Positions 16,997 through 33,137 of a stretch of DNA of 64,000 nucleotides are shown one piece after another (the stretch's first letter is position 1; each line of letters begins with the position of its first letter). The notes beneath the pieces were generated by a model, which did not search any database, was not told the origin of the DNA, and worked only from the letters and a program-made list of their open reading frames with translations. The DNA is from Dehalococcoidia bacterium (GTDB taxonomy: Bacteria; Chloroflexota; Dehalococcoidia; Lucifugimonadales; CAJWER01), in contig OY762633.1 in assembly GCA_963666125.1 (NCBI GenBank), forward strand, positions 1,474,935 through 1,538,934, in the 5' to 3' direction. A program made the position numbers and the translations under genes.

Positions 16997-18174
16997 GACG
17001 CTGCCGTATGCTCCATGGCGCCGAACACGCCCGCTGCCCTCAGCTCTTCGACCTCGGCCTGCGAGTATCCGGCCCCGGCCAGTATGTCGTCGGACTGCTC
17101 GCCCAGGCCCGGCGGGGCCTTGAACGGGCCGGTCGGCCCGGTCGAGAAGCGCGCGGGCTGTCCCAGGAACGTTGCCCCGCCGACGGAGGCGAACATGCCC
17201 CGCGCCATGAAGTGAGGATTGCCCAGGACTTCGGCCAGGTCGGAGACGGCGGCAGCGGGCACGTCGGCGGCGAGCAGCGCGTCCTCCCAATCCACGGCCG
17301 TCCTGGTGGGGAATACCTCGGCGAGCGCGGCCCGGATGGAGTCCGCCTCCCTCAGCCTCTCGTCCAGGTCCATCCCTGCCATGCGCCCAAGTCTGGCCAC
17401 GCCGCAGAAGCGGTCCCAGAAGTGGTCCTCGTGGACTATGCCGAGGCTGAGCCACCGTCCGTCGGCGCACGGGAACAGCCCGTAGTGCGGGATGAAGGTC
17501 ACGTTCGGACTGCGGCCGTCTTCCGACGGGTCCCCTGCCCTTCCGACCTCTAGCCCCATGAGGGCCAGGGCCGCGTCGGTCATCGAGAGGTCGATGTATG
17601 CGCCGGCGCCGGATGCGCCGCGTCCCGCCACGGCGGCCAGGGTCATGATGGCCGCGTAGAGCCCCGACACCAGGTCGGAGAACAGGACGGCGGGAGGCCA
17701 CGGCCTCCCCTCGACCGCCGCCTGCAGGCCCATGTAGCCGCTGAGCGCAAGGTAGTTCACGTCGTGCCCGGGCCTGTCGCGCCACGGCCCATCCTGGCCG
17801 AACCCCGAGATGGAGCAGTAGACCAACCCCGAGTTGTCCTCGGACAGGGCGGCGTAGTCGGCCCCAAGCCGCTCGGCCACGCCCGGCCGCCACCCTTCGA
17901 GCACTATGTCCGCGCGCCGGGCAAGCCTGCGGAGCGCCTCCCTGCCGCCGTCGGTTTTGAGATCGAGGGCGATGCTATCCTTGCCGTGGTTGATGCTGGC
18001 CCAGATGCCAGGGCTGTGGCGGAGTGGGTCGCCGCCGGGCGGCTCTACCTTGATCACGCGGGCGCCCAAGTCTCCCAGGATCGTCGAGCAGAACGGCCCG
18101 GGGACGTTGACAGTCATGTCCAAGACCGAAATATGCGCCAGCGGGCCGCGGCTATCGTCGTTCAAGGGGTTCAT
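16993..18174 (-). CDS. Family III CoA-transferase (CaiB/BaiF-like)
   Basis: 393 aa. The N-terminus ISVLDMTVNVPGPFCSTILGDLGARVIKVEPPGGDPLR is typical of the family. Confidence 0.9.
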   Translation of the reverse strand: MNPLNDDSRGPLAHISVLDMTVNVPGPFCSTILGDLGARVIKVEPPGGDPLRHSPGIWASINHGKDSIALDLKTDGGREALRRLARRADIVLEGWRPGVAERLGADYAALSEDNSGLVYCSISGFGQDGPWRDRPGHDVNYLALSGYMGLQAAVEGRPWPPAVLFSDLVSGLYAAIMTLAAVAGRGASGAGAYIDLSMTDAALALMGLEVGRAGDPSEDGRSPNVTFIPHYGLFPCADGRWLSLGIVHEDHFWDRFCGVARLGRMAGMDLDERLREADSIRAALAEVFPTRTAVDWEDALLAADVPAAAVSDLAEVLGNPHFMARGMFASVGGATFLGQPARFSTGPTGPFKAPPGLGEQSDDILAGAGYSQAEVEELRAAGVFGAMEHTAAS

Positions 18175-18218
18175 CGTCCGGCACCTGCATCCCCGGGTTG
18201 CCGTTCCATCATGCCGGT

Positions 18219-18908
18219 TCAGTCCGAGCCGCTGCCCCTGAATCGACCGATGAACTTGGAGCCTTGCCTCTCCTTGATCCCGGAGCCGATGAGGGCGATC
18301 TCGTTGGGCAGCACTATACCGCCCGAGAACACTAGCTTCATGGCCTCCTCCACCGTGAGGTCCGTCTCCAGGATCTCGCCCTCCGGAACGAAGGCTATGT
18401 TGCCCGAGGTCGGGTTCGGGACCGTCGGGATGTAGATGATGATTATCGACTCATCCCTGTCGGGAGGGGTGAGGAAGCCGGTCACGAACCCTATGGCGAC
18501 TGAGCCTTCCCGTGGCCACTCCACGAAGACGACGCGGCTGAAGTGCTGCTGGGAGGAGAGGGCCTCCATCGCCGTCTCTGAGACGCCGTATATCGTGCTG
18601 ACGATGGGGATGTGGTTCAGGACCGCGCTCGTCCACTCCATCACCTTCCGCCCCGGCATGGTGGCGATCATCAGCCCGATGACGTAGCAGATGATTATGA
18701 GGACGACCAGCCCCACGCCCGGTACGTCCACCGATACGCCCAGTATCTCCCGGCCTTCTACGAACGGCTGTACGGCGGAGTCGGTGTGGCCGATGATGAA
18801 GAGGATGACCACGATGGTGACGATCAGGGGCAGGAGGGCCAGGAGACCGGACAAGGTCATGCCCACCGCGTGACTCTCGATGCGCTTGAGTGCACGCCAG
18901 AGTACCAA
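18219..18908 (-). CDS. DUF502 family membrane protein
   Basis: 229 aa with two N-terminal TM helices and the family hallmark IPTVPNPTSGNIAFVPEGEI. The start could be the internal Met (MTLSGLLALL). Confidence 0.8.
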   Translation of the reverse strand: MVLWRALKRIESHAVGMTLSGLLALLPLIVTIVVILFIIGHTDSAVQPFVEGREILGVSVDVPGVGLVVLIIICYVIGLMIATMPGRKVMEWTSAVLNHIPIVSTIYGVSETAMEALSSQQHFSRVVFVEWPREGSVAIGFVTGFLTPPDRDESIIIIYIPTVPNPTSGNIAFVPEGEILETDLTVEEAMKLVFSGGIVLPNEIALIGSGIKERQGSKFIGRFRGSGSD

Positions 18909-19173: not shown

Positions 19174-21432
19174 ATGGGAAAGATAAGGCGCTCGGCAATC
19201 CTCATACTCGTCCTGGCTCTCTTCGCGGGCACGCAGTGGGCCGCGGCCCAGGACGTCTCGGCAGACTCGGGCTTCTCGCGACCGATCACGACGATCGTGG
19301 TCGACGGCGTCTCGACGCGCTCGTCGGAGGCCGCGGCAGACCTCGCTATCTCCTTCGTGAGCCTGCTCGACACCATCCAGAGCGACGACCTGTTCATGCT
19401 GATGGTCACCGACGACGCCACGCACTTCGTCGGCCCCCATCGACCCTCGGACCCTGCCTACAACCAGGTGCGGGCGGACTTCGACGCCATCCTGAGATGG
19501 CCGGTCACCATCCGGTCGGACGACCTGGGGAAGGCGCTGGCCGAGACCTACGCGGCCATGATCGAGGAGCGAGCGAGCGAGGGGTCGAGCATCTACGTGC
19601 TGGTCGGGGACTCGCCTCACAACGACTTCGACAACCTCTCGGAGGGCGTCGGGCCCCTTGTCTCCAGGATGGCGGAGCAGGGCTGGAGCCTCAGCGGGGT
19701 CAGCCTGCCCGGCGCGTCCAGATCGGCAAAGAGCTTCCTGTGGGAGGCGTCCTCGGCTTCCGGAGGGCGCATGGTGGACCTGGCCACGTACGTGGGGCTC
19801 TCCGCCGCCGCCGACAAGGTGCTCGGCGAGCAGGCGCGCGGAATGCTGACCGAGGTCGGCAGCAGGACCCTCTCGCGCAACGAGATCATCAGCTCGGTCG
19901 TCAGCGTCGCGCCCGGCACGAGCAGCACGTCGATCCTCATCTTCAGGGACTCCCCCCAAGGCTCGTTCCAGCTCAGCGACCCGTCCGGCTACGCTATATC
20001 CGAGGAGCGCACCGATTACCGGGTCGTGGAGTCCCCCAACGCCGTCGTCTGGGAGATACGGGACCCGGCGCCCGGCCACTGGAAGGTGGACGGACAGGGC
20101 ATAATCGGCAGCGTTTCCGTGTGGAGCTACTCCAGCAACTCCTACAGGATCGCCCTGCAGAGCTCCGCGGCGCTGCCCCTGCGCGAGCCGTCCTCCTTGG
20201 TGGCCTACGTCGCCGAGAACGACCGGCTGGTCATGCTCGAAGACGCACGGATCATCGCACGGGTAACCACTCCCGACGGCGCGAGGATGAAGCTCGAGCT
20301 GCTCGACGACGGGACCGGGCCCGACCAGGTTGCGGGCGACGGCATCTACTCCACGCAGCTACAGCCCCTTTCCGCGGCCGGCGACTACGAGGTGGAGCTA
20401 GACCTCTCCTGGTCCGACTTCAACCACACCCTCACCTCTTTCGCCACCTTCAGCGCGGAGGCGTATCCAAGCGTCCTCGTGGACGGCATCGAGGTGAAGG
20501 ATCTGGCGCCCGGAGAGCGGACCCACGTCGCCGACGTACTGGTACACATCGACAACACGCCGTACTCGGTTCCCCAGGAAGCGCTGATCCCCATCGTGAA
20601 CGCGGCCCCGGGTTCGGAGGCCCAGGTGGAGATCGTGCCCAGGAGCATCTTCGGCAGCGGCCCGGCGTGGGAGTACGACGTATTCCTGACCGTCTCGGAG
20701 CCGGGCACGTACTCCGTCGCGCTGCAGCTCACGACCGAGTTCGGAGGCGCTACCTTCTCCAAGCTCTCCGAGATGATAGTGCTGCGATCCGGGGGCGCGG
20801 AAGCTCCGGTCGCCGCCCCGCCGGTCGAGAAGCCGGCCGTGGCGCAGCCCGCCATAGTGCAGCCTGTCGCGGCGCAGCCCGCTACGGTGCAGCCTGCCGC
20901 AGTGCAGCCCGTGGCCCCGGCCCAGGCGGCCGAGCCCATCGAGCCCGCGCCCGTGGACGCGATAGGGGAGCCCGCTTCCCTCTCGTGGCTCGGTCTGGTG
21001 ATCGTACCCCTGCTGACGATCGTGGGCGTGGGGATCTACTTCCTACTCCAGACGCGGCCCTACGGGTACATATACGGCGACAGGGAGGAGCGCCTCGTCG
21101 ACTTCTCGGCGCTCAGGCGCAATCCCCTCGCCGCCGTCTTCCGCCGGAGCCACGTCGATGGCTCGGAGCTCGACATACCGGGCCTCGAGAACGTGGCTTT
21201 CAGGTTCTCTGGCGAAGCCATACACGTCCAGAGGGGCAAGGGTGACGGGACGACGGTGCGCGTCAACAACCAGCCGCTGGTCGACCAGGCGGTCATCCAG
21301 GACAGGACGTGGATAGGCACGCGCGGTAAGCTCTACACCTTCCTGGCCCAGCCACCCGGCCTGCCCATGGAAGACGTCCCCGAAGAGGGCATACCCGACG
21401 GAGGCATCCCCGAGGGAGCGAGCGCGGACTGA
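19174..21432 (+). CDS. Single-pass membrane protein: signal peptide, VWA-like region, beta-rich extracellular domains, P-x-x-x-Q repeat linker, TM helix, cytoplasmic FHA-like domain
   Basis: The start was chosen at ATG 19174, 8 nt after GGAGG (19161-19165); the track ORF begins at 19159. The signal peptide is MGKIRRSAILILVLALFAGTQWAAAQ. The MIDAS-like segment is degenerate (VVDGVSTRS). A DDGTGPDQVAGDGIYS motif is present. The TM helix reads LSWLGLVIVPLLTIVGVGIYFLL. The C-terminal ~110 aa (VAFRFSGEAIHVQRG..TTVRVNNQPL) are FHA-like. The functional call is weak. Confidence 0.55.
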   Translation: MGKIRRSAILILVLALFAGTQWAAAQDVSADSGFSRPITTIVVDGVSTRSSEAAADLAISFVSLLDTIQSDDLFMLMVTDDATHFVGPHRPSDPAYNQVRADFDAILRWPVTIRSDDLGKALAETYAAMIEERASEGSSIYVLVGDSPHNDFDNLSEGVGPLVSRMAEQGWSLSGVSLPGASRSAKSFLWEASSASGGRMVDLATYVGLSAAADKVLGEQARGMLTEVGSRTLSRNEIISSVVSVAPGTSSTSILIFRDSPQGSFQLSDPSGYAISEERTDYRVVESPNAVVWEIRDPAPGHWKVDGQGIIGSVSVWSYSSNSYRIALQSSAALPLREPSSLVAYVAENDRLVMLEDARIIARVTTPDGARMKLELLDDGTGPDQVAGDGIYSTQLQPLSAAGDYEVELDLSWSDFNHTLTSFATFSAEAYPSVLVDGIEVKDLAPGERTHVADVLVHIDNTPYSVPQEALIPIVNAAPGSEAQVEIVPRSIFGSGPAWEYDVFLTVSEPGTYSVALQLTTEFGGATFSKLSEMIVLRSGGAEAPVAAPPVEKPAVAQPAIVQPVAAQPATVQPAAVQPVAPAQAAEPIEPAPVDAIGEPASLSWLGLVIVPLLTIVGVGIYFLLQTRPYGYIYGDREERLVDFSALRRNPLAAVFRRSHVDGSELDIPGLENVAFRFSGEAIHVQRGKGDGTTVRVNNQPLVDQAVIQDRTWIGTRGKLYTFLAQPPGLPMEDVPEEGIPDGGIPEGASAD
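20833..20925 (+). repeat. In-frame tandem 15-bp (5-aa) repeats encoding PAVAQ-PAIVQ-PVAAQ-PATVQ-PAAVQ-PVAPAQ
   Basis: Read directly as ccg gcc gtg gcg cag / ccc gcc ata gtg cag / cct gtc gcg gcg cag / ccc gct acg gtg cag / cct gcc gca gtg cag. The repeats sit just outside the TM helix. Confidence 0.8.
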
Positions 21433-22498: not shown

Positions 22499-23773
22499 AT
22501 GTCAGGCCAGAACCCCCTATTCGACCCGCCCGGCGAATCCAGCGACTCCTTCGAGCTTTCGAGGTTCTCGATAAGGCGCTACTCGATGCAGCAGGGGCTG
22601 CTCGTCCTTGCCATCATATGCCTGCTCATAGCGATGAACGTCCAGGCAGCGCTGAATGGCAACGCCGTACTGGTGGCCCTGGCCGCGGCTACTCTCGTGC
22701 TCATGCTGGTCCTGACGGGCCTCATCCTCTTCGTAGGCGTACGGGCCGTGGCGGTCGAGATGTGGATCCGCCGGCTGGGAATGGGCGACTTCGAGTACCG
22801 GATCGAGCCGTGGGGCAAGGACGAGGTGTCCAAGCTCTGCGAGGCCCTGGAAACGCTGAGGCAGAGCTCCATCCGGGCCATGCGGCTCGACCTGGTGCAG
22901 AAGCTGTCCGACGAGCTCCAGGCCAAGAACGCCACCCTGGAAGAGACCCTGGACGAGCTGAGGAAGACCCAGGACCGCATAGTCAGCCAGCAGAAGCTGG
23001 CCGAGCTGGGAGAGCTGTCCGCCGGCATCGCCCACGAGATACGCAACCCCCTCCAGTTCATCAGGAACTTCGCCGAGTCCTCCCAGATCATGGTCGACTC
23101 CCTGAGGGAGATGTCGGAGGAGGACGAACCCCTCGACCTGGAGGAGGTGGACGACCTGACCCGGGACCTCGTCGAGGCCACGGGCCACATAATCACACAC
23201 AGCGAGAGGGCCGACCGCATCGTCGAAGACATGCTGGCACTGGGACGCAAGGGCAAGGGGATTTTCGGCAGGGTCGACCTGAACCAGCTCCTGGCCGACC
23301 AAGCCCGGCTGGCCTACCAGGCGGTCCAGTCCCAGGAGCCGGGCTTCAGCGCCGCCGTCCGTCAGGAGCTGGACGAGGACCTGGGAGATATCGTCGCGGT
23401 GCAGGAGGACCTGGCGCGCGTCTTCACCAACATGGTCACCAACGCCTGCCACGCCATGGCCGAGCGGGCCAAGTCGGCGGGGGACGAGTACGAGCCGGAG
23501 CTGAAGATAGAGAGCCGACGGACGGACGAGGGAGCGGAGATCACCATCAGGGACAACGGCATTGGCATGACGGCCGAGGTCGCCTCGAAGATCTTTAACC
23601 CCTTCTTCACCACCAAGGAGAGCAGCGCGAGCACCGGACTGGGGCTGAGCCTGTCCCGGGACATCATCCGGGAGCACGGCGGCCGGATTGCGCCCGCGTC
23701 GGAGCCCGGGGAGTACACCGTCATGACCGTGAACCTCCCCCGCGATCCCGAGGCCTCGAGGAGAGCGGAATGA
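22499..23773 (+). CDS. Sensor histidine kinase (2 TM, HAMP, HisKA, HATPase_c); no adjacent response regulator
   Basis: 424 aa. The H-box is [14 protein letters not shown], the N-box is [11 protein letters not shown]1 is RDNGIGM and G2 is STGLGLSLS. Confidence 0.85.
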
Positions 23774-23848
23774 CGTGAACCGGGCATCAAGGGCTCGCTA
23801 TCTTCGCTGACACCCGCCAGGAGTTGCCCAGAGTCTGCACGTACTTTA

Positions 23849-24856
23849 CTACCGTCCACTCTGCCTCTTAATGCGTTCAATGGACTGCTGAATCTTTGTG
23901 ACCTCGTACAGGCACTTGTCCTGCTGTTCCGGGGACATTCGATCTAGGTCGGCCAAGAATTCCGGGACCTGCATTTCCCGCCTGAAACGTTTGAACCGAC
24001 GCAGCCACATATTGTCGACGCCACGGTCCTGTGCGCTCTCAAATGCCCTATCAAATGTCTTGTCACCAGATAAGAGTATCTTGGTCGGCTCCGGGCCCAC
24101 CTTGGCCGTATCAAGGAGTTTGACCAGCTTGTCTCTCACATCCGGCGAGCTTGGAATCTCCCCGCCCTTAATCTTCCTAACGACTACGTCATCGAGCTCC
24201 GGGTTTTCGCGACGAGCCTTCTTCACTATGTTGGACTTCAGGTACTCGAAGTAGTAGCTCCACCGTGTAACGCTGGTCTCATCGTGTTCAACCATGAACT
24301 TGTATGTGTCGATGAGCTGGTTCACCTTTCTCTCCGATAGTCCCATCTCGCTTGCCATACTCTGAGCACTGACCTCATGGGTGACGTTTCTGCGGTATAG
24401 GTAGCCCGCCTGTTCGTAGGGAGCCCAGTCCTTTCTGCCAATGATGTGGTACTCGCCTAGCAGGGCGAACACGAGCTTCTCGCTGATGTCGCCGGGGAGC
24501 AGCCGAACTTTGGCCTTGCCCCACGTCTTGAGGTCGTTTCTAGCAAGCTCGCGGTATGCGGCGAGTCGACTGTTTCCTTCAAGCACTACGAGATCGCCAT
24601 CCCTCACAAGCATGGGGTCTGTCAGTCCACCGTTTGCCCTGATTGACTGAAAGAGCTGCTTGACGTGGTCCGACCCTCTCAGTCTATTGAAGATCTCTTC
24701 CTGGGACGGTTCAACACCCGGCCTTTGAATTAGCGAATATATCCTTGGATTCTCCGGATAGAATTTGAGATCGTGAATCGGAAGATATCCGTTCCGGACC
24801 GGTATCTCCTGACCACCAAGCGTAAGAGTGTCGTTGACCCATGCAGAATCAGTCAT
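23849..24856 (-). CDS. ParB/Srx-fold N-terminal domain protein with predicted HTH (island gene 6)
   Basis: 335 aa. The core reads KFYPENPR..SIRANGGLTDPMLVRDGDLVVLEGNSRLAAYRELA. It is a paralog of 26782-27831. An AGGAGG SD lies 8 nt upstream of the ATG. Confidence 0.75.
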   Translation of the reverse strand: MTDSAWVNDTLTLGGQEIPVRNGYLPIHDLKFYPENPRIYSLIQRPGVEPSQEEIFNRLRGSDHVKQLFQSIRANGGLTDPMLVRDGDLVVLEGNSRLAAYRELARNDLKTWGKAKVRLLPGDISEKLVFALLGEYHIIGRKDWAPYEQAGYLYRRNVTHEVSAQSMASEMGLSERKVNQLIDTYKFMVEHDETSVTRWSYYFEYLKSNIVKKARRENPELDDVVVRKIKGGEIPSSPDVRDKLVKLLDTAKVGPEPTKILLSGDKTFDRAFESAQDRGVDNMWLRRFKRFRREMQVPEFLADLDRMSPEQQDKCLYEVTKIQQSIERIKRQSGR

Positions 24857-24877
24857 TGTCCATGCCTCCTAGTTGGT

Positions 24878-26347
24878 CTATGCATCCAATATGGCCCGCA
24901 GGATGTCCCCAAATTCGTAGGACATCTCCTTCTGGTATGTCTCCCTGTCGATGTCGCCCTGCGCGAGCTGCGCTGCGACCTGCTTGGAGTGAAGCAGCGC
25001 CTCAACCCATTCGTCTATCGAGTCACGCATAATCAGGTTGTGAACGTGGCAAACTCTGTCTTGGGATATCCGATGGATCCTGTCCTGTGCCTGCAGGTAG
25101 TCGTCCAAGCTGAACAGCCGGTCGTAGAAGATGACGTGGTTCGCTACGGTCAGAGTCAGCCCTTCCTTGGCGGAGCCTGGGGTGGCAATGAACACCTTTG
25201 CACTCGGCTCATCGATAAAGGTGCGAATCGCGTCGGTCTGCTCCCTAGTACTCAACAGTCCGTGGACTAGCTGAGGATTGTGTTGGCTCAGAATTCTTGC
25301 CAGCCACTCGACATTTTCAACGAACGACGTCCAGACTATGCATTTTTCACCATCTCTAACTATTGATGAGACCAGCTCAAGCAGGGTCTCCAGCTTCCCG
25401 GGCTCGACCCGGTAGCTCGCATCAATCAGGTTGGGATTCGACGTCACCTGTACCAACCTGAGCAGGCGCTTCAACACCAATTCCGACTCGTCGGCCATGA
25501 GTTGCCCATCCTGGAAGATGATAGCTCGCAGAGACTCCCTGACCTGCCTGTACAACTCCTGCTGCCGGGGCTCCCATTCGGTCACCAAAGAGTGGACAAC
25601 TTTGTCAGGAAGGCTTATCTCGGCGCTTGCCTTCGTCTCCCTTACGGCAAACCCCGATATCGAGTGGAATATGCGCTGTAACTGAATCTCCAAGGCTTTC
25701 TGCCGACTTTCAGCACCGGCTAAGTCGTTCGACAGGTTCACTGATCGTTTGAATTCCCCAAAATCATCTCCAAGCGACGCGCCGTCGTCAAGGAACTTGA
25801 TCTGCGACCAGATGTCGTGCGGGCGATTTGAAACTGGGGTCCCGGACATAATAACCCGCCTGGTGAACAGAGGCGCAAGATCGAGGAATGTCATGGTGAG
25901 AGCAGCGTCGGGGTTCTTGATCTTGGTTGACTCGTCCAGAATCACCCCGACATTCCTAGTCCTGAGAAATAGATGCATCCGCTCCTTCTCGGCTTTCACG
26001 GCCTCGTAGTGAGCAAGCATGACCCGGGCGGGACTATTGAAGACATAGAAGTTCCCACCACGGTTGTTGGTCAGGATTCGAGGAACGAGTTGAGAGTGAG
26101 AGGAAAGTTCCCTCTGCCAGTTGTCAAGGAGTCCCTTCTTAACAACTATCAGGGCAGTGTCCAATAGCTGGTGAGACAGCCAGTAAACAATGAGGTCTAT
26201 CGCAACCTTCGTCTTCCCCAACCCCTGTTCATGGAATATGGCGGCATACTCGAGATCCTTGACCGCATTGACAGCCTCCAGCTGGTATGCGAATGCCTCG
26301 TGCTTCAAGGTGAGGTCTGGCTCTCTCTTTAGTGTCAATTTCTGCAA
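24878..26347 (-). CDS. SNF2-family helicase/translocase (island gene 5)
   Basis: 489 aa with a TTG start. Motif I is EQGLGKTK, II is LDESTKIKN and III is MSGTPVSN. The C-terminal lobe reads GLTLTVANHVIFYDRLFSLDDYLQAQDRIHRISQ. Confidence 0.88.
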   Translation of the reverse strand: MQKLTLKREPDLTLKHEAFAYQLEAVNAVKDLEYAAIFHEQGLGKTKVAIDLIVYWLSHQLLDTALIVVKKGLLDNWQRELSSHSQLVPRILTNNRGGNFYVFNSPARVMLAHYEAVKAEKERMHLFLRTRNVGVILDESTKIKNPDAALTMTFLDLAPLFTRRVIMSGTPVSNRPHDIWSQIKFLDDGASLGDDFGEFKRSVNLSNDLAGAESRQKALEIQLQRIFHSISGFAVRETKASAEISLPDKVVHSLVTEWEPRQQELYRQVRESLRAIIFQDGQLMADESELVLKRLLRLVQVTSNPNLIDASYRVEPGKLETLLELVSSIVRDGEKCIVWTSFVENVEWLARILSQHNPQLVHGLLSTREQTDAIRTFIDEPSAKVFIATPGSAKEGLTLTVANHVIFYDRLFSLDDYLQAQDRIHRISQDRVCHVHNLIMRDSIDEWVEALLHSKQVAAQLAQGDIDRETYQKEMSYEFGDILRAILDA

Positions 26348-26351
26348 TGAG

Positions 26352-26789
26352 TCAACCTTCCTGATGTGGCTGTAACATCAGCCGATTCATTTCGGACAGA
26401 ACGACGATTTCAACGTGAAGCAATCCCTCTCTGGCCTGGAAGTTCGCGAGTCGTGCCCTAGCGAGTCTCTCAATAGGCCATGGCACCGCCAGTATGAAGG
26501 CCGAGCCTTCCGACATCCCACATCTTCTCAGGAATGCCATGATCTGAGCTTCGGTATGTGAGTTCTCCAGGTCCCTCATGCTCTTGGCTTCGCCGATGAC
26601 TACTCTTCCCTGTTCGTTGAGCATGACATAGGCGTCGGGCACATACCCTCCAATAGGCGGCGGGCGATTAGGCGATTCACCGCCAACGGAGTCGGTAAGG
26701 ACACGTTCCCTCCGACCTCCACAGAACCTATCCCCGATGTAGTTGTGAAGTATAGCAACCAAGTTTAAGTGTTCCTCTGATTCAGGCAC
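26352..26789 (-). CDS. PD-(D/E)xK nuclease-fold protein (island gene 4)
   Basis: 145 aa with a GTG start that overlaps the upstream stop by 8 nt. A helix-1 Glu lies in SEEHLNLV. The core VPDAYVMLNEQGRVVIGEAKS gives PD-x14-E-x-K. Confidence 0.6.
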   Translation of the reverse strand: MPESEEHLNLVAILHNYIGDRFCGGRRERVLTDSVGGESPNRPPPIGGYVPDAYVMLNEQGRVVIGEAKSMRDLENSHTEAQIMAFLRRCGMSEGSAFILAVPWPIERLARARLANFQAREGLLHVEIVVLSEMNRLMLQPHQEG

Positions 26790-27831
26790 TGGTTGAAGAG
26801 GGTGAGACGATGAGCTTGCAGAGTTGAGCCAACTGGTCCCTGGTCTCAGTCAGAGCGAGATTATCGGGAGTGTTCAGGTCTTCGCGAAGACGCAGGAGGT
26901 CTGTGTAGCTCATCTTTTCTATGTGGTCCAACAGCGCATTGGCGAGCTGGGTAAGTGTGGCGTCCTTCAGCGCCTCTACCGTGGAGGGAGTGTCCAGAAT
27001 CTTTTCTGCTTCACGTGCTCCATCAGTCAGGAATACGCTCCGCGCCTGCGGATTGGCGAGGATTGCAGGGAGCCTCCTGACACGGTCGAGTGGGTACAGA
27101 ATCTGGTCGTTAACCCACCCAGCGAAATCTGCCTTTGTGTATCCCGAGGTCACGAGAGCTTCCTGTACCCGTGGGGCTTGCATCTCAACAAAAGCACTGA
27201 ACCGCGTCGGGTCAAACTGGTCGTCACTGGCAAGGAGTGGCCGGTAATGGTTCTCCATGTCGTTGTAGGCGTCGATGAATCGGTGCACCTCGGCCTTCTG
27301 CCCTCCGCAGAAATCAACGATCTGATCAGTTGTCAGGTGCTCGGAGTTGCTGAGATAGTCCAAGTACTTTGCCTTCGAGTATGGGTCCCACTGTCTTGGG
27401 CCGACCAGATGGGCCTGTAGCCGAATGGCATCGATCTCCTTTTCATCAAGCCGTTCGTACACGATTGCCGGGATTTCGTCCCATCTATCACTATCATCGT
27501 CGCTCCTCCTGAACTGGCGATAGATCAGGGCACGGGTGTTTCCCTCGATGACGACAAGCCTGTCTTCGTCCTCTCTGTTGACCAAGATGGGATGGATTAC
27601 ACCTCCATGGGTCCTGATTGATGCCCTCAGACTCTGGAATGTGGTCGTGCTCTCACCCTGCTCATAATTGGCGGCGCCAAGAGCCAGACTCATCTGATCA
27701 TCGGTCACTTCGCCGCCGTACATCTCAATGTAGCGCGCCACCCGGGGATTGGACGTATCAAGCACAAGCGTTTCGACCGGAAGCATCATGAATTGACCGT
27801 TTCTTGCAGCCATATTGTTTCTCTCCATCAA
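26782..27831 (-). CDS. ParB/Srx-fold N-terminal domain protein with predicted HTH (island gene 3)
   Basis: 349 aa. The start is TTG 27831 or ATG 27828, immediately after the upstream TAG. The core reads LDTSNPR..SIRTHGGVIHPILVNREDEDRLVVIEGNTRALIYRQF. Confidence 0.75.
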   Translation of the reverse strand: MMERNNMAARNGQFMMLPVETLVLDTSNPRVARYIEMYGGEVTDDQMSLALGAANYEQGESTTTFQSLRASIRTHGGVIHPILVNREDEDRLVVIEGNTRALIYRQFRRSDDDSDRWDEIPAIVYERLDEKEIDAIRLQAHLVGPRQWDPYSKAKYLDYLSNSEHLTTDQIVDFCGGQKAEVHRFIDAYNDMENHYRPLLASDDQFDPTRFSAFVEMQAPRVQEALVTSGYTKADFAGWVNDQILYPLDRVRRLPAILANPQARSVFLTDGAREAEKILDTPSTVEALKDATLTQLANALLDHIEKMSYTDLLRLREDLNTPDNLALTETRDQLAQLCKLIVSPSSTSA

Positions 27832-29370
27832 CTAGTCTGAATTTATATCTGAACTATTTTGCCCGACCCTGGAGGCTTCTGCGAACACTAATTCAATCAA
27901 CCCCATTGCGGAGCTCGGTGAGGGCGAGAGAGTCGCCAAAGCTCCAAATACCCTCTGATACACAACGACCTCTGAGGGAGTCATTTTATCGAACCTATGC
28001 AGCTCTGTATCAACTGAAAAGTTGTTAAGTTCTCCCTCCACATTACTGAGCCTCTCAAGAGTGCCGTTATCGAGACTATCCTTACCGATGCTCTTGCGAA
28101 GTTCCTTGATTTCCCGCAATGCCTCTTTGACCAACCCGTCCGAGTCCTCTGCAGTGAGATAACCGGACGTTGCCAAAGCACAGATGTCCTCAACGTTGCA
28201 CAGTGATGAGAGAGCCTTCCTGGCACGGTTACGAGCCATGGACTCCCGTCTACACCGCGTACTTATATTGCGTAGCACGGGGGTCAGTTGGTTTTCGAGA
28301 TTCCGCAGATGGGGGCCAGGTTCAAAGTAGTCACGTCTGGCGTTGGGAATGATCCGTGAGTCCAGGACATGCAACTCTCCCACACACCATCGATTGAACC
28401 GTTCCTCTGTAAAGAGGTCGTCGAACACCGCCTCACCACCAATCTGTATGTTCCCAACCCTGGCCTTGATGCCACGCACTCGCTGTTCTTTTGGGATCGC
28501 GCCCAAGTAGGGCGAGTGTGCGATCCAACCAACGGCCGCTTCACCATTGTGGTCGACGCTTGGTATATGAACCATCTGGAAATCCGTAAAATCAGCCTCC
28601 TTATTTACCGAGAGCCAGATTGATTTCCCATATGGTCTCTCTATCGGATCTGGATCTCCTTCCAGCAGCACTTCCAACGTGAGAGGTGCCTCAGTGCCAT
28701 CGAATAGCCCTTCGACTTCCTTGGCAAATGGGAACCCGGAACTCAAGGGCACTGGACACACTTCGCCGATATAGTCGCGGACCGCGTCACGATTGAGCAG
28801 CAGTCCCGCGGAGTGACGCGCCACATCTCCGACTTCGACCTCGAAGAAGTGCTCAGGATAATCCGAAGCTGGCAGGGTTTCCACATTGACGCAGTCAAGA
28901 ATGGCCTCCTCGAGCTCCGACTCGGTGGAGGTCAGTTCGGGAAGCCGATCGCTATGCCATGTGATTCGGGTTACCGCCTGGTTCTCGCTGGCTCGTGTTG
29001 TGAATGAGACTGTCTTTGCGAAGGCAAGCCCGGCCAGCCGTCCAACGCCACGGAAGCCCCTATCGATTCCCAATGTCTTGTCACTGCGGCCAATGGGCAA
29101 CAGCCGCCCAAGCGCTTCCTCGCGAGACAGACCAGGGCCGTGGTCTCGAATCCTGATCCGGCGCTCAGTGACATCGATAGCGATATCCACTCTTGCTCTT
29201 CCGGGTAACCCGCTCCCCGCGACTGCGTCTGCCGCATTCTGTATGTACTCCCTGTACATGGACAGCGGAGCATCGTACATCCCTGTTGTCACAAGCCCGA
29301 GTAGTCCCGCACCCGAGAGCGCTGGGGTGTTCTGGGTGACAGGCGCCAACTCAGTCACGTCTGCGCTCAT
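27832..29370 (-). CDS. GHKL (Bergerat-fold, HATPase_c_3/MORC-like) ATPase (island gene 2)
   Basis: 512 aa. The N-box is YREYIQNAADA, G1 is IRDHGPGLS and G2 is DRGFRGVGRLAGLAF. Its start overlaps the radical SAM stop (ATGA at 29367-29370). Confidence 0.8.
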   Translation of the reverse strand: MSADVTELAPVTQNTPALSGAGLLGLVTTGMYDAPLSMYREYIQNAADAVAGSGLPGRARVDIAIDVTERRIRIRDHGPGLSREEALGRLLPIGRSDKTLGIDRGFRGVGRLAGLAFAKTVSFTTRASENQAVTRITWHSDRLPELTSTESELEEAILDCVNVETLPASDYPEHFFEVEVGDVARHSAGLLLNRDAVRDYIGEVCPVPLSSGFPFAKEVEGLFDGTEAPLTLEVLLEGDPDPIERPYGKSIWLSVNKEADFTDFQMVHIPSVDHNGEAAVGWIAHSPYLGAIPKEQRVRGIKARVGNIQIGGEAVFDDLFTEERFNRWCVGELHVLDSRIIPNARRDYFEPGPHLRNLENQLTPVLRNISTRCRRESMARNRARKALSSLCNVEDICALATSGYLTAEDSDGLVKEALREIKELRKSIGKDSLDNGTLERLSNVEGELNNFSVDTELHRFDKMTPSEVVVYQRVFGALATLSPSPSSAMGLIELVFAEASRVGQNSSDINSD

Positions 29371-31010
29371 ACGATCTGCGTCCCCTTGACTGCGAGTGCT
29401 TCATCGTGATCGAAGAGTCCAGCATCTTCAACGACTTCGTCCTCCTCAAGGTAGGTGCCACTCCCGGTCATTTTCTCCATGAGCTGGCGACCGTTCGTCT
29501 TCGCGTCCTGTCTGGTGTCCAGTCCATGGAATGCCATCAACTGTCGTATCTGGTGGTCGATCGTTTGGTCATTCGCCAACTCCCGGAAATGTTTCGGGCC
29601 CATTCCATTCCCGTTGGATGGATTGGCCAGTAGATGCACGAACTCATTCTCCTGAGACTCTGAAAGGCTCCTGCGAAGCGACTCGTACTCCTCCCTTTGG
29701 GCTCGCCCTTCCCCATCCTCAAAATACTCTCGATGGAATATGAAGGCGTGCGGCAGCCTGAGCAGCCGCTCAAACTCCTCGGCGTTTTCTCCATAGGCTC
29801 TCAGGAAGAAGGACGGGCTGCCGCTCACAACTCCCCTAGTTGCCTGGAGCATAATTTGGAACGAACGGAGGTAGTATCGGTTCCATTTCTTGCCCACGTG
29901 TGACCGATCCTTCAATGTCACGGGCTGGTAGCGCATTGGGAAGGACCAGATACGGACCCCAAGCTCTTCATTAAGGTCGATGTTGAGATGCATTCTCTGG
30001 TAGAGGTCTGACGGAGTGTCCATAAAGTTATACAGCATGTAATTCGACAGGGAGGTGATCTGGTTGTCCGCCGCCATGCGAATTGACTTCTCATAGACCT
30101 TCCTGACACCGATGTGATCGAAAGCGACTCGCAGCGGGCTGATGCAGATGGTGGACATTTCACGTAGGAACATATCCGACTTGGCGAGGATTCGTGCATC
30201 CACCCCCTGGTTGAAGTCCACCCGCCGCTTGACCGATCTGTTACCATCGCGAGTTAGCTTGGCTCCGGGCGTAAAGCCCAGATCGCGAATCTCGGCAATC
30301 ACCTCCCTGTAACGCGTTGACGCCGTGATGTTGTTGTCCATGAGCACGAGGTCCTTCTTCTCCCCATGCCTTTCAGTCACCCTTTCAACCAGATTGGTAA
30401 GGGGTGGCATCTCTCGCTGCGCACCCTCCAGCTTCGGCACCCCACAGAAAGAGCACTTCCTCACACATCCACGAGATGCGTAGCCGAAGTAGGCATCATG
30501 GACAGGGTAACGGTAGTCGATATGTTCGAGGATGCTATAGTCGGGAACCAGTTCCTCGATCGGCGTGCCGGCTAGGTCGTCAGCGCCAAACTCATATTCG
30601 TCTGCCGACAGGGCTAGAGACGCTGCGGGAGGGCCATCGAGCAGACCCTTGATGAAACGTACCCCGGCCCATCTGGGTACGTTTAGGAAAGCGTCGTGCA
30701 TGAGCGAGACTGCGATGCCGCCGACAAAGACGCGCTCCCGTTGATCGTGTGCCGCACGTATGGCGAAATCGATAGCCGAGGCTGTGCGCTTCCACTCGAA
30801 AGTGAAGAGTGTGGTGACATACACTCGGTCCCATGCTTGCTCCAACGCTTCCTTGTCTTCGCCCTTCATGAAGGTGACGCGGTCTCCTCGACCAAATGAG
30901 CCGTGATAAGCGGCGAGCTTCATCAGACCCAACGGCGGATACTTGTTGGGGTAGCTAGGCTCGATAAGTAGGATATTCCTCATAGCACCAGGGACACAAC
31001 AAGCCACCAT
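29367..31010 (-). CDS. Radical SAM enzyme with N-terminal B12-binding-type domain (island gene 1)
   Basis: 547 aa; an alternative start is the Met of MRNILLIEPS at 30983. The Rossmann-like N-terminus reads ILLIEPSYPNKYPPLGLMKLAAY. The cluster motif is GYASRGCVRKCSFCGVP (CxxxCxxC). A ~150-aa acidic C-terminal extension has no motif I recognise. Confidence 0.8.
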   Translation of the reverse strand: MVACCVPGAMRNILLIEPSYPNKYPPLGLMKLAAYHGSFGRGDRVTFMKGEDKEALEQAWDRVYVTTLFTFEWKRTASAIDFAIRAAHDQRERVFVGGIAVSLMHDAFLNVPRWAGVRFIKGLLDGPPAASLALSADEYEFGADDLAGTPIEELVPDYSILEHIDYRYPVHDAYFGYASRGCVRKCSFCGVPKLEGAQREMPPLTNLVERVTERHGEKKDLVLMDNNITASTRYREVIAEIRDLGFTPGAKLTRDGNRSVKRRVDFNQGVDARILAKSDMFLREMSTICISPLRVAFDHIGVRKVYEKSIRMAADNQITSLSNYMLYNFMDTPSDLYQRMHLNIDLNEELGVRIWSFPMRYQPVTLKDRSHVGKKWNRYYLRSFQIMLQATRGVVSGSPSFFLRAYGENAEEFERLLRLPHAFIFHREYFEDGEGRAQREEYESLRRSLSESQENEFVHLLANPSNGNGMGPKHFRELANDQTIDHQIRQLMAFHGLDTRQDAKTNGRQLMEKMTGSGTYLEEDEVVEDAGLFDHDEALAVKGTQIV

Positions 31011-31028
31011 GCATCAGATTTGGAGGCT

Positions 31029-31058
31029 ATTGTACGCCAACGGACGGACGGCTGCCAA
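31029..31058 (-). promoter_or_regulatory. Candidate sigma70-type promoter of the island operon
   Basis: The minus strand reads TTGGCA (31058-31053), an 18-nt spacer, then TACAAT (31034-31029). It lies 19 nt upstream of the ORF start at 31010. Confidence 0.4.
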
Positions 31059-31077
31059 GACCCACCGCCTAACATAT

Positions 31078-31100
31078 GCCAAGGGTTGACGGTCCTTGGC
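31078..31100 (-). terminator. Stem-loop downstream of shc (possible terminator insulating the island operon)
   Basis: gccaagg-gttgacggt-ccttggc gives 7-bp arms. On the minus strand it is followed by ATATGTT. A second palindrome, GGAGGCCTCC, lies at 31107-31116. Confidence 0.35.
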
Positions 31101-31118
31101 AGTCTAGGAGGCCTCCCG

Positions 31119-33137
31119 TCAGTTGGCGGTGCTCTTCGCCGTCCCCTCTTCCGCGTACCGGCGGAAGCGCCCCAGGGCCATCAGCGGCCAGTAGTTCCTG
31201 TAGAGGTCGTACCTGATCATGAACCCGGCGGGTAGCTCGCTCCCCTGCTGCCGTACCTTGTCGACCCGCTGCCCCACGCCGTAGCCCGGGAATCCCGTGC
31301 CCGTGAACCAACGCTCGCTCCACGTCCCGTCCTGCCGCTGGGTGCCCGCCAGGTAGCGAATGCCGCGCTCGACGGTCGGGTGCTCCCACTCCCCGGCGGC
31401 CATAAGCGCGAGCAGCGCCCACGCGGTCTGCGACGCGGTGCTGCCGGCCCCCCGGCCCGCCAGCATCCGGTCGGCATAGCTGGCGCAGCTCTCCCCCCAG
31501 CCGCCGTCCTCGTTCTGGTGGGCCGCCAGCCAGTCCACGGCCCGGCGCACCGGCTCCCCCGTCATGTCCTGTCCCATCGCTTCCAGCGCAGGGAGCACGG
31601 CGCCGGTGCCGTATATGTAGTTGACGCCCCAGCGGCCGAACCAGGGGCCGTCCGGCTCCTGCTCGCCCAGCAGGTACTCCACCGCCCGGTGCAGTGGGTA
31701 CGCGTCCGTCGGGTAGCCGATGCGCGCGAGGGACTCCACCACGTGGGCAGTCACGTCCGCGCTGGGGGGATCGATCATCTCGCCGAAGTCGGCGAAGGGC
31801 ATCTCGGCCACAGCCCGCCGGGTGTTGTCCTTGTCGAAGGCCGCCCAGCCGCCGTTCTTGCTCTGGACACCGAGCATCCACTCGGCCCCGCGCCCGATCG
31901 CCTCCTCCTGCCTGCCGGCGTCCTCCAGCCGCACCCGCCTCAGGGCTATCAGCACCTCCGCCGTGTCGTCGATGTCCGGGTACGTCCTGTTGGCGAACTC
32001 GAAGGCCCAGCCCCCGGGCGGCGTGTTCTTCGCCTTGACCTGCCAGTCCCCTCCGTCGGAGACCTGCGCCCTCATGAGCCATTCGCCCGCCCGTCGCAGG
32101 ACCGGGCTGTCGGGGGCGAGGCCGGAGTCCTCCAGGGCGATCATCGCCAGGCACGTGTCCCAGACGGGAGACACGCAGGCCTGGACGCGCATGGAGTCGT
32201 TCTCCTCGATGACGAAGCCCTTGAACCCCTCGACGCCCTTCCGCATGGCGGGGTGATCGACCCCATATCCCAGGACCTTCAGGGCGATGAGCGAGTAGAC
32301 CCAGGGGGGCTGTATGCCGCCCCATGAGCCGTCGTCCTCCTGGTGGTCGACTATCCACTTGACGGCCTTGCGGATGGCGGTCTCCCGCAGCGGGTGCCAC
32401 GGGAGGGAGTTGTACCACCGGAACAGCCGGTCGGCCAGCCGGAAGAATCCCGCCATGCCCGTCAGGCCCCCGATTCCCACCCTGTCGGCGTGTCCGCTCG
32501 CTCCGTTCGGTACGAGCTCGGGAATGGCGGCGCCGATCGGGACCGGGCATACCGGCCTCCGCGAGAGCACGATGCTCAGGGGCAGCATGGTGCCCCTGGC
32601 CCAGCTCGAAAAGTCGTACAGGTTCATGGGCACCCACGGCGGGAGCAGCACCATCTCCGGCGGGAGCGCGGGCACGGCCTTCCAGCTCCACTGCCCGAAG
32701 AGGGCGAGCCATATCTTGGTGAAGACCCGTGTCCGCGGGATGCCGCCCCTGGACAGGATGAACTCGCGCGCCCTCGCCATACGGGGATCGTCGGGGGAAG
32801 CTCCCGCCAGCTTCAGGGCAAAGTAGCACTCGACGGTCGTGCTGAGGTCGCCGGGGGAGCCGTAATACTGCCCCCACGTGCCGTCCTCCCGCTGGGTCTT
32901 GAACAGGTGGTTCGACAGCTTCCTCCACGTATCGCCGTCTCCGATGCCCAGGAAGTGGGTCAGCAGGAGGTACTCGGCCTCCATCGTGGAGTTGGACTCC
33001 AGCTCGCCCCACCAGTAGCCCTCGGGGGCCTGGGTGCGTATGAAGTAGTCCAGGGAGCGGGCCACCGCCTCCGCAACCGCGTCCCTCAACCCCTGGTGAG
33101 CGGACGGCGCCCGGGCCTCTCGAACCTGCTGCTTCAC
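31119..33137 (-). CDS. shc: Squalene-hopene cyclase
   Basis: The track ORF 31119-33281 is trimmed to the GTG at 33137, which overlaps the hpnG stop (GTGA). The catalytic DxDD motif is in YPDIDDTAEVLIAL. There are multiple QW-type repeats (e.g. QNEDGGWGE, QREDGTWGQYYG). Confidence 0.93.
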   Translation of the reverse strand: MKQQVREARAPSAHQGLRDAVAEAVARSLDYFIRTQAPEGYWWGELESNSTMEAEYLLLTHFLGIGDGDTWRKLSNHLFKTQREDGTWGQYYGSPGDLSTTVECYFALKLAGASPDDPRMARAREFILSRGGIPRTRVFTKIWLALFGQWSWKAVPALPPEMVLLPPWVPMNLYDFSSWARGTMLPLSIVLSRRPVCPVPIGAAIPELVPNGASGHADRVGIGGLTGMAGFFRLADRLFRWYNSLPWHPLRETAIRKAVKWIVDHQEDDGSWGGIQPPWVYSLIALKVLGYGVDHPAMRKGVEGFKGFVIEENDSMRVQACVSPVWDTCLAMIALEDSGLAPDSPVLRRAGEWLMRAQVSDGGDWQVKAKNTPPGGWAFEFANRTYPDIDDTAEVLIALRRVRLEDAGRQEEAIGRGAEWMLGVQSKNGGWAAFDKDNTRRAVAEMPFADFGEMIDPPSADVTAHVVESLARIGYPTDAYPLHRAVEYLLGEQEPDGPWFGRWGVNYIYGTGAVLPALEAMGQDMTGEPVRRAVDWLAAHQNEDGGWGESCASYADRMLAGRGAGSTASQTAWALLALMAAGEWEHPTVERGIRYLAGTQRQDGTWSERWFTGTGFPGYGVGQRVDKVRQQGSELPAGFMIRYDLYRNYWPLMALGRFRRYAEEGTAKSTAN

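Follow-up and report, generated by a model that had tools for sequence, protein, structure and literature searches.

A candidate modular anti-phage and anti-plasmid island that joins a B12-type radical SAM protein to an Hsp90-like ATPase in a Dehalococcoidia bacterium and its relatives

In this work we analysed a window, i.e., a stretch of 64,000 nucleotides from a Dehalococcoidia bacterium (Chloroflexota; assembly GCA_963666125.1, contig OY762633.1, positions 1,474,935 to 1,538,934 of the forward strand), which contains a minus-strand block of six genes of approximately 7.2 kb. Counted from the candidate promoter, the block encodes a radical S-adenosylmethionine (SAM) protein, a GHKL ATPase, a ParB-like protein (ParB-A), a small nuclease-like protein, an SNF2 helicase and a second ParB-like protein (ParB-B). 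This island is probably an undescribed anti-phage/anti-plasmid system, because this arrangement, for which there is no name, turns up repeatedly in many bacterial phyla as well as on plasmids. Its invariant unit is the pair of radical SAM and GHKL genes, while ParB-nuclease-SNF2-ParB is a separable, exchangeable cassette. Our preferred reading, to which we give a probability of roughly 0.45, is that of a mobile and modular defence island in which a two-part core and its cassette follow a modification-plus-restriction logic like that of the Dnd, Ssp and Dpd systems.

An invariant core and an exchangeable cassette

The two-module structure was revealed by a comparison of 80 genomes, each representing a species, in which close relatives of the radical SAM protein are encoded (loci L001-L080). 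The GHKL gene followed the radical SAM gene in 79 of the 80 loci, and when both proteins were compared with their window copies, the identity values were closely correlated (rho 0.90 overall and, for the divergent subset, 0.79); the corresponding value for the divergence of the SNF2 and radical SAM proteins in the divergent subset was rho -0.04. The ParB-small-SNF2-ParB cassette was present in 50 loci, in which it was located upstream of the core (34), downstream of it as in the window (14) or in an inverted position (two), and it was absent from the other 30. Across the loci, the radical SAM proteins were 65-91% identical compared with 26-50% for the cassette proteins, and this higher conservation fits a core that acts on a universal substrate and a cassette with fast-evolving components of discrimination. 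In L098, one of the more distant relatives, the cassette is 52-61% identical to that of the window but the core just 33-37%, which is direct evidence of module exchange. An earlier interpretation that was made from the letters of the DNA (the sequence-only reading) had treated the six genes as one unit, had placed the GHKL ATPase in a sensing and effector arm together with the nuclease and the helicase, and had suggested that one ParB might work with the radical SAM enzyme. Synteny is indeed kept in other genomes; the arrangement recurs in dozens of unrelated ones, which exceeds what chance would give. The unit itself, however, has to be narrowed to the first two genes, the comparative data place the GHKL protein with the radical SAM protein, and the radical SAM gene has neither of the two ParB genes as a fixed partner. 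In Rhizobiales, it is a third protein, of the DndB family, that is encoded beside it.

Where the cassette was missing, several replacement modules were observed. These comprised NurA-like and HerA-like proteins with a second GHKL protein (L023, 5584-9996), a DndB/DpdB-HEPN(Swt1) fusion of approximately 770 aa (L038, 7643-9961), a 630-aa GHKL protein with a 340-aa protein (L030, 13228-16167), the latter belonging to cluster c13, for which no family match was found, and, in Rhizobiales, a PIN_8 protein with a GHKL protein (L081, 12215-15731). The alternative neighbours are all conflict modules of the nuclease, ATPase or ParB type. The region of Walker A is degenerate in the HerA-like protein of the NurA-HerA-GHKL module. 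Loci with the core only also occur, e.g., L016 and L056. Moreover, the pattern of core and module was repeated on 48 IMG/VR contigs with radical SAM relatives at 25-63% identity, on which the full six- or seven-gene arrangement, NurA-HerA-GHKL-radical SAM (approximately 30% identity) and DndB-HEPN-radical SAM were found; the association held on these contigs down to a radical SAM identity of approximately 30%.

In some islands of the window type, additional genes were found after ParB-B. Locus L011 has a third ParB-like copy (17426-18493), L004 has a further open reading frame (ORF) of the c13 family (19414-20385), and the blocks of L004 and L010 reach approximately 19.4 kb. The cassette is therefore still in the course of extension. 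Phages and prophages also encode short radical SAM homologs (305-360 aa), which may serve in defence, counter-defence or DNA modification. One of them, in Marinitoga camini virus 1, a Thermotogota prophage (L083, 6001-9827), lies in the lysogeny region beside HerA and NurA, which are homologous to the pair of the sponge clade that is described below. Another, in a Bacteroides LoVEphage (L084, 4989-5906), is near a PAPS-reductase-like gene, fragments of DNA methyltransferases and an RtcB ligase.

Gene organisation and predicted proteins of the island

The six-gene block coincides with a low-GC segment (23800..31100) between GC-richer flanks. Its guanine-cytosine (GC) content is 48-60% (about 54%) between approximately 23,800 and 31,100 compared with 64-73% outside (66-72% for the flanks when set against the value of about 54%), and the block is horizontally acquired. 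It is flanked by a histidine kinase gene and the squalene-hopene cyclase gene (shc). No integrase, relaxase, ParA or replication genes were found within the 7.2-kb low-GC block of the window, a flanking-repeat search returned no meaningful terminal repeats at the edges of the island, there was no tRNA nearby, and Rfam gave zero family matches anywhere in the window. The flanks of the window recurred in none of the 80 related loci, and the insertion site is unique. The sequence-only reading had listed methyltransferase, Pgl, Drm, Dnd, Ssp and DpdA genes, as well as integrase and ParA, as absent from the block, and none of them was found there.

All six of the minus-strand ORFs that had been called earlier were recovered at their coordinates, and each of the junctions (-4, 0, -8, +4 and +21 nt) was confirmed in the sequence itself. 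The operon structure agrees with that described in the sequence-only reading. A 4-nt ATGA overlap, which is an arrangement of translational coupling, joins the radical SAM gene to the GHKL gene, and the TAG of the latter is followed without a gap by the TTGATG of ParB-A. ParB-A overlaps the small gene by 8 nt, a 4-nt gap (TGA-CTCA-TTG) with AGGAAGG upstream separates the small gene from SNF2, and a 21-nt gap, in which AGGAGG lies 8 nt before the ATG, separates SNF2 from ParB-B. A candidate sigma-70-type promoter, TTGGCA-18-TACAAT (31029..31058, minus strand; 10 of 12 positions), lies 19 nt before the ATG that is annotated for the radical SAM gene. This proposed promoter proved to be the best sigma-70-like site within 23500-31400, but the number of promoter-like sites in the region (six versus 3.8 +/- 2.1 in shuffles) was not above chance. 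Similarly, the hairpin that had been reported 3' of shc exists, but its stability was not significant (z = -1.48) and it has no U-tract, on account of which the terminator reading was dropped.

The first core gene (29367..31010, minus strand) encodes a protein of 547 aa that is predicted to be a radical SAM enzyme of the cobalamin-binding (class-B-like) type. The cysteines of its CxxxCxxC motif, C182, C186 and C189, were invariant in 32 diverse and 81 close homologs. The match of the window protein to Pfam Radical_SAM (22.8 bits) was below the gathering cut-off, and the same family was matched by 27 of the 32 diverse members. The B12-binding family PF02310 was matched by four of the 32 (best E 1.6e-8) and was not matched by the window protein itself. 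In the AlphaFold2 model, which has a predicted local distance difference test (pLDDT) score of 84.5, the protein has two domains, and the top Foldseek matches were MgmA, MiaB, TsrM, OxsB, TokK, RimO and CysS. As judged from the model, it resembles cobalamin-dependent methylases; the best alignments were with cobalamin-dependent radical SAM enzymes (MgmA, TsrM, OxsB, TokK and CysS) and with the methylthiotransferases MiaB and RimO. A predicted Rossmann-like B12-binding domain is present at the N-terminus of the family, for which cobalamin binding and methyl transfer are predicted. An identity as a MiaB/RimO methylthiotransferase was rejected, since the auxiliary-cluster cysteine triad and the TRAM domain are absent and the likeness is at the level of the fold only; the family has no conserved cysteines N-terminal of C182, and a TRAM match was not obtained. 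The protein matched phrog_9298 (2.8e-39), its family comprises approximately 272 clusters at 50% identity with E<1e-30, and the query had 6657 matches in a word-indexed database. Among the viral structures of BFVD, only generic B12-type radical SAM matches were found.

Homologs of the radical SAM protein are approximately 540 aa long, and their alignment to the window protein begins at its residue 10-11. It is therefore possible that translation really starts from the second ATG (M10, MRNILL...) at 30983, in which case the radical SAM start would be 46 nt from the promoter candidate. Additionally, the motif V-E-D-A-G-L at residues 525-531 (29418-29438, minus strand) was at least 95% conserved in the 81 close homologs and was not kept in distant members of the family. 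The C-terminal tail in which it sits is otherwise variable and has predicted disorder (pLDDT <50 from residue 506); the motif possibly serves as a docking peptide for another protein, for instance the GHKL ATPase.

The second core gene (27832..29370, minus strand), which is coupled to the radical SAM gene, encodes a GHKL ATPase of 512 aa. It matched HATPase_c_3 with 34.7 bits, above the Pfam gathering cut-off, and the NCBIfam 'HSP90 family protein' at 2e-08, and it had weak sequence matches to MutL. Its N, G1 and G2 boxes were invariant in 33 GHKL sequences. The AlphaFold2 model (pLDDT 78.7) has a long helical C-terminus after the N-terminal and middle domains. All of the top 50 Foldseek matches of this model were Hsp90, TRAP1, GRP94 or HtpG, with 400-490 aligned columns over the N-terminal and middle domains. 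The sequence-only reading had described the protein as MORC-like, a label for which the Foldseek search gave no support; because the best matches of the model are Hsp90-family proteins over these two domains, 'Hsp90-like' is the better label.

The cassette begins with ParB-A (26782..27831, minus strand; 349 aa), which had a ParB_N match of 20.9 bits, below the cut-off, a match to PDC-M38A (1.2e-10) in its N-terminal domain only and a match to phrog_3694 (7e-13). Its GNTR motif and HLVG.R.W were conserved in 51 sequences. ParB-B (23849..24856, minus strand; 335 aa), the fourth cassette gene, is preceded by the AGGAGG Shine-Dalgarno sequence and matched parB_part (2.7e-4), PDC-M38A (3.4e-8) and phrog_3694 (4.8e-15); its motif, EGNSRLA, was conserved in 54 sequences. 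The two proteins are paralogous (E 1e-19). In 62 ParB-like sequences, of which 14 matched ParB_N, G97 and R100 of GxxR (box II) were invariant; the PHROG matches of the family are likewise ParB-like, and GN(S/T)R was conserved across homologs. By their sequences, ParB-A and ParB-B belong to a divergent ParB/Srx family with a putative NTPase/nuclease activity.

The second gene of the cassette (26352..26789, minus strand) encodes a small predicted PD-(D/E)xK nuclease of 145 aa with RecB-like motifs. In 35 sequences, including that of Rhizobium, H7, D33, P51-D52, E67, Q82 and F86 were invariant and K69 was nearly so, which gives the layout PD52, E67-x-K69 and Q82-xxx-F86. We take these residues to fit the motif set of RecB-type PD-(D/E)xK nucleases. 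No match to this protein was found in Pfam, PADLOC, NCBIfam, PHROG or PDB sequences. The third gene (24878..26347, minus strand) encodes an SNF2-family helicase/translocase of 489 aa that consists of the helicase core only. It matched SNF2-rel_dom (3.6e-27, 95.6 bits) and Helicase_C (5.6e-15, 56 bits), both above the Pfam cut-offs, and its motifs I-VI were conserved in 51 sequences. Its PADLOC matches were generic and concerned the helicase halves of ZorD, DpdE and DrmD and likewise only the core of BrxH. The motifs that were quoted earlier for the island are present and conserved across homologs. The expected Pfam families were found in part: SNF2_N, Helicase_C and HATPase_c_3 exceeded their cut-offs, while Radical_SAM and ParB_N remained below theirs and PF02310 had no match among the window proteins. 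The sub-cut-off Radical_SAM and ParB_N calls were accepted because they are supported by homologs and models.

Distribution and mobility

The close clade, in which the radical SAM proteins are 65-91% identical, was found in metagenome-assembled genomes, most of them from sponge symbionts, of at least 11 phylum-level lineages. These taxa included Chloroflexota, Actinomycetota, Acidobacteriota, Latescibacterota, Nitrospirota, Binatia, Spirochaetota, Gemmatimonadota, Alpha- and Gammaproteobacteria, Thermodesulfobacteriota and Poribacteria. Several of the candidate genus and family names in the records of the close clade (Spongiihabitans, Poriferihabitaceae and Aldehydirespirator) trace to studies of the sponge holobiont, and the pattern looks like habitat-wide gene flow across phyla within sponge microbiomes. 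In all 80 loci, the GC content of the island was lower than that of its own flanks, with a median difference of -6.7 points.

Full-length homologs with approximately 54% identity were also found on plasmids, many of them conjugative, of cultured Rhizobium, Mesorhizobium, Agrobacterium, Bradyrhizobium, Roseomonas and Novosphingobium; plasmid orthologues occur in cultured Sinorhizobium, Bosea, Methylosinus and Methylorubrum as well. On plasmid pR132505 of R. leguminosarum WSM1325 (NC_012854.1, approximately 13.3-21.6 kb), the order is ParB, small gene, helicase, ParB, DndB-family gene, radical SAM and GHKL, and the cassette proteins are 36-54% identical to those of the window. Plasmids of Rhizobium and Novosphingobium have a true DndB-family (DGQHR) gene immediately in front of the radical SAM gene, with which it overlaps.

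Two further observations concern the window outside the island. An ORF of 1791 aa (40368-45743, plus strand) has a domain of the reprolysin-type M12 metallopeptidases, many leucine-rich repeats and an fn3 domain. It is a 'eukaryotic-like protein' of a kind known from sponge symbionts and is in keeping with the window having come from such a symbiont. ARAGORN called a 94-nt tRNA-Val(GAC) at 49459-49552 (plus strand), where long ORFs cover both strands; this is probably a false positive because there is no Rfam tRNA there at the gathering threshold.

Named systems and possible functions

Searches of PADLOC, NCBIfam, Pfam and PHROGs returned domain-level matches only and no system-level match for the window proteins. 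In the full-text literature, in which coverage of subscription journals is thin, no description was found of a system of radical SAM and GHKL proteins with or without ParB and SNF2. The earlier statement that this combination matches no named system therefore stood in PADLOC, NCBIfam, Pfam and the literature. The NCBI names for the core proteins are just 'radical SAM protein' and 'ATP-binding protein/Hsp90/HtpG'. Ophion, the systems of the Dnd reappraisal and those of the HEPN survey were compared with the island and are different systems.

Dnd, Ssp and Dpd have a conserved enzymatic core, interchangeable helicase/nuclease modules and ParB/DndB-like partners, and DndB and DpdB accompany known DNA-modification modules. 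The island is similar to Dnd and Ssp in its conserved putative modification core with interchangeable restriction modules, in the DndB-family genes of its relatives and in the occurrence of orphan cores. It differs from them in that PADLOC, Pfam and NCBIfam gave no match to DndA/C/D/E or Ssp, and its putative chemistry is radical-SAM-based rather than a sulphur insertion. Its likeness to Dpd lies in a ParB-like protein of the DndB/DpdB family that adjoins the putative DNA-modifying enzyme, in an SNF2 (DpdE-like) and helicase/nuclease part that forms a separable restriction arm and in its mobility. However, none of the window proteins matched the DpdA transglycosylase, DpdB or DpdC, preQ0 pathway genes are absent, the SNF2 match is to the generic helicase core of DpdE, and the catalytic partner is a cobalamin-type radical SAM protein with an Hsp90-like ATPase. 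The analogy to Dnd, Ssp and Dpd is strengthened because a DndB-family gene overlaps the radical SAM gene in Rhizobiales.

Viperins and Ophion share with the island a radical SAM enzyme that is central to a defence system, here a candidate one. Viperins belong to another clade of radical SAM proteins, from which the island enzyme differs by its B12-binding-type N-terminal domain, and no PADLOC viperin match was obtained. Ophion is composed of radical SAM, PHP and phosphoribosyltransferase (PRTase) proteins, and the island has neither PHP nor PRTase domains. Compared with both, the obligate GHKL partner and the putatively DNA-targeting cassettes are unique to the island. MORC/paraMORC and other GHKL ATPases are said, in the work of Iyer and colleagues from 2008, to be embedded in restriction-modification-like (R-M-like) systems. 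What the island shares with these is a GHKL ATPase gene in conflict neighbourhoods that also contain genes for nucleases and SF2 helicases, but its ATPase is structurally nearest to Hsp90 and its constant partner is the radical SAM protein. A survey of HEPN proteins also found GHKL ATPases in conflict neighbourhoods and lists the ParB-HEPN protein Saro_3948 (PMC3710099). According to our analysis, Saro_3948 neighbours the copy of the island on pNL1 of N. aromaticivorans; a radical SAM link was not noted for its neighbourhood in that survey. The A proteins of PDC-M38 and PD-Lambda-5 have the same ParB-like domain at the N-terminus as ParB-A and ParB-B, which is a shared domain and not membership, because only approximately 200 of 715 profile positions are matched and no other component matches. 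As regards Zorya, DISARM and BREX, the SNF2 core alone matches ZorD, DrmD and BrxH, and no ZorA/B, DrmA/B or PglX/PglZ was found in the block.

In the model that we favour, DNA of the host cell would receive a covalent mark from the core. The GHKL dimer would serve as a clamp or gate, controlled by ATP, by which the radical SAM enzyme is loaded or licensed; the reaction of this enzyme would be a radical one on DNA, probably a methyl transfer. Restriction would fall to the cassette, in which the ParB-like proteins would load onto DNA and discriminate it, while SNF2 would translocate along DNA and the nuclease would cut DNA in the wrong modification state. This division of labour, both within the core and within the cassette, is one that we infer. 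A phage DNA dioxygenase was shown to need a ParB-like activator on double-stranded DNA (PMC13229309). This precedent, the architecture of the island and the overlap with the DndB-family gene are the reasons why such a mark-and-restrict model is favoured. A function in defence as such is rather likely. That the substrate of the radical SAM enzyme is DNA is a more tentative proposal, to which we would give somewhat less than an even chance. The island would thereby belong with the modular defence islands of the modification/restriction type without matching the named ones, and there is a substantial chance that the chemistry of its core is new. It is a bolder and on balance unlikely idea that the radical SAM protein and its Hsp90-like partner are a new DNA-modifying machine, in which a GHKL clamp loads or gates the cobalamin-dependent enzyme, which provides genomic DNA with a hitherto unknown self mark at the level of carbon or the backbone for interchangeable restriction cassettes and which has swept through marine sponge microbiomes and rhizobial plasmids.

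Several points weigh against this model. The proposed chemistry is without precedent, because we know of no class-B radical SAM enzyme that acts on DNA. The Hsp90-like fold that is seen in the model of the ATPase would also be in keeping with a protein that chaperones or activates the radical SAM enzyme instead of a DNA clamp. The 145-aa protein is a predicted nuclease that was assigned from its motifs alone. The core-only loci fit orphan modification modules but also a core that works alone, and the DndB-like gene that supports the analogy to modification systems in Rhizobiales is missing from the island of the window. Finally, the 131 nearest flanking ORFs include cyclases of the cyclic-oligonucleotide-based antiphage signalling system (CBASS), GajB, AbiEii, a defence-associated reverse transcriptase (DRT), type I/II R-M genes and PDC-S01, which suggests a defence-island setting, but the count has no matched background control.

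The principal rival is that the core is itself the effector, which on infection would make an antiviral nucleotide analogue or would damage or modify the invading nucleic acid, the cassettes being sensors or parallel effectors. Viperins make 3'-deoxy-3',4'-didehydro-CTP (ddhCTP) and OxsB makes oxetanocin, and radical SAM proteins of the viperin type and of Ophion are proven components of defence. OxsB, which is cobalamin-dependent and acts on deoxyadenosine phosphates, was among the structural matches (rank 10), and both the core-only loci and the short phage homologs would be in agreement with an effector. No nucleotide kinase, phosphohydrolase or PRTase partner was found, however, the PADLOC viperin models were unmatched, and both the obligate Hsp90-like partner and the repeated association with nucleases and with DNA-binding proteins of the DndB/ParB-like type are against an effector core, which we consider to be quite unlikely. 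A little less probable again is that the island serves the element that carries it, in the competition, exclusion or stabilisation of plasmids or integrative and conjugative elements, with the ParB/Srx proteins as nucleases/NTPases against rivals. The full-length homologs on plasmids, conjugative ones among them, in Rhizobiales and Novosphingobium and the 48 IMG/VR contigs with relatives speak for such a role, as does the conflict among conjugative plasmids that ParB/Srx proteins are described as mediating (Maindola et al. 2014, as cited in PMC10853773). Yet in the window, as in most of the 80 loci, the island lies on the chromosome, and its block in the window is without integrase, relaxase, ParA and replication genes; moreover, a service to the carrier overlaps with defence and differs from it mainly in the beneficiary.

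An involvement in DNA repair or genome maintenance would combine a lesion repair like that of spore photoproduct lyase and a MutL/Hsp90-like ATPase with SNF2 and a nuclease or with resection by HerA-NurA. All of the components have relatives of the repair type, the GHKL protein weakly matches MutL, and HerA-NurA are the resection enzymes of archaea. Repair systems, however, are usually vertical in their inheritance and fixed in their composition, whereas the island is patchy and horizontally transferred, with foreign GC in 80 of 80 loci and swapped cassettes. Together with the HEPN and PIN domains of the toxin type among the alternative modules and the defence genes in the flanks, this makes a repair function improbable.

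If the mark-and-restrict reading is true, the island would be a widespread unnamed defence/modification system, the catalytic heart of which, a B12-type radical SAM enzyme with an Hsp90-like ATPase, is unlike that of any characterised system. It could reveal a new chemistry of DNA or nucleotides as well as a new role of Hsp90-like ATPases. The idea is directly testable, as there are cultured hosts with plasmid-borne orthologues. It would also explain why a block with 65-91% protein identity is shared across at least 11 phylum-level lineages of sponge symbionts, which would be a striking case of habitat-wide gene flow.

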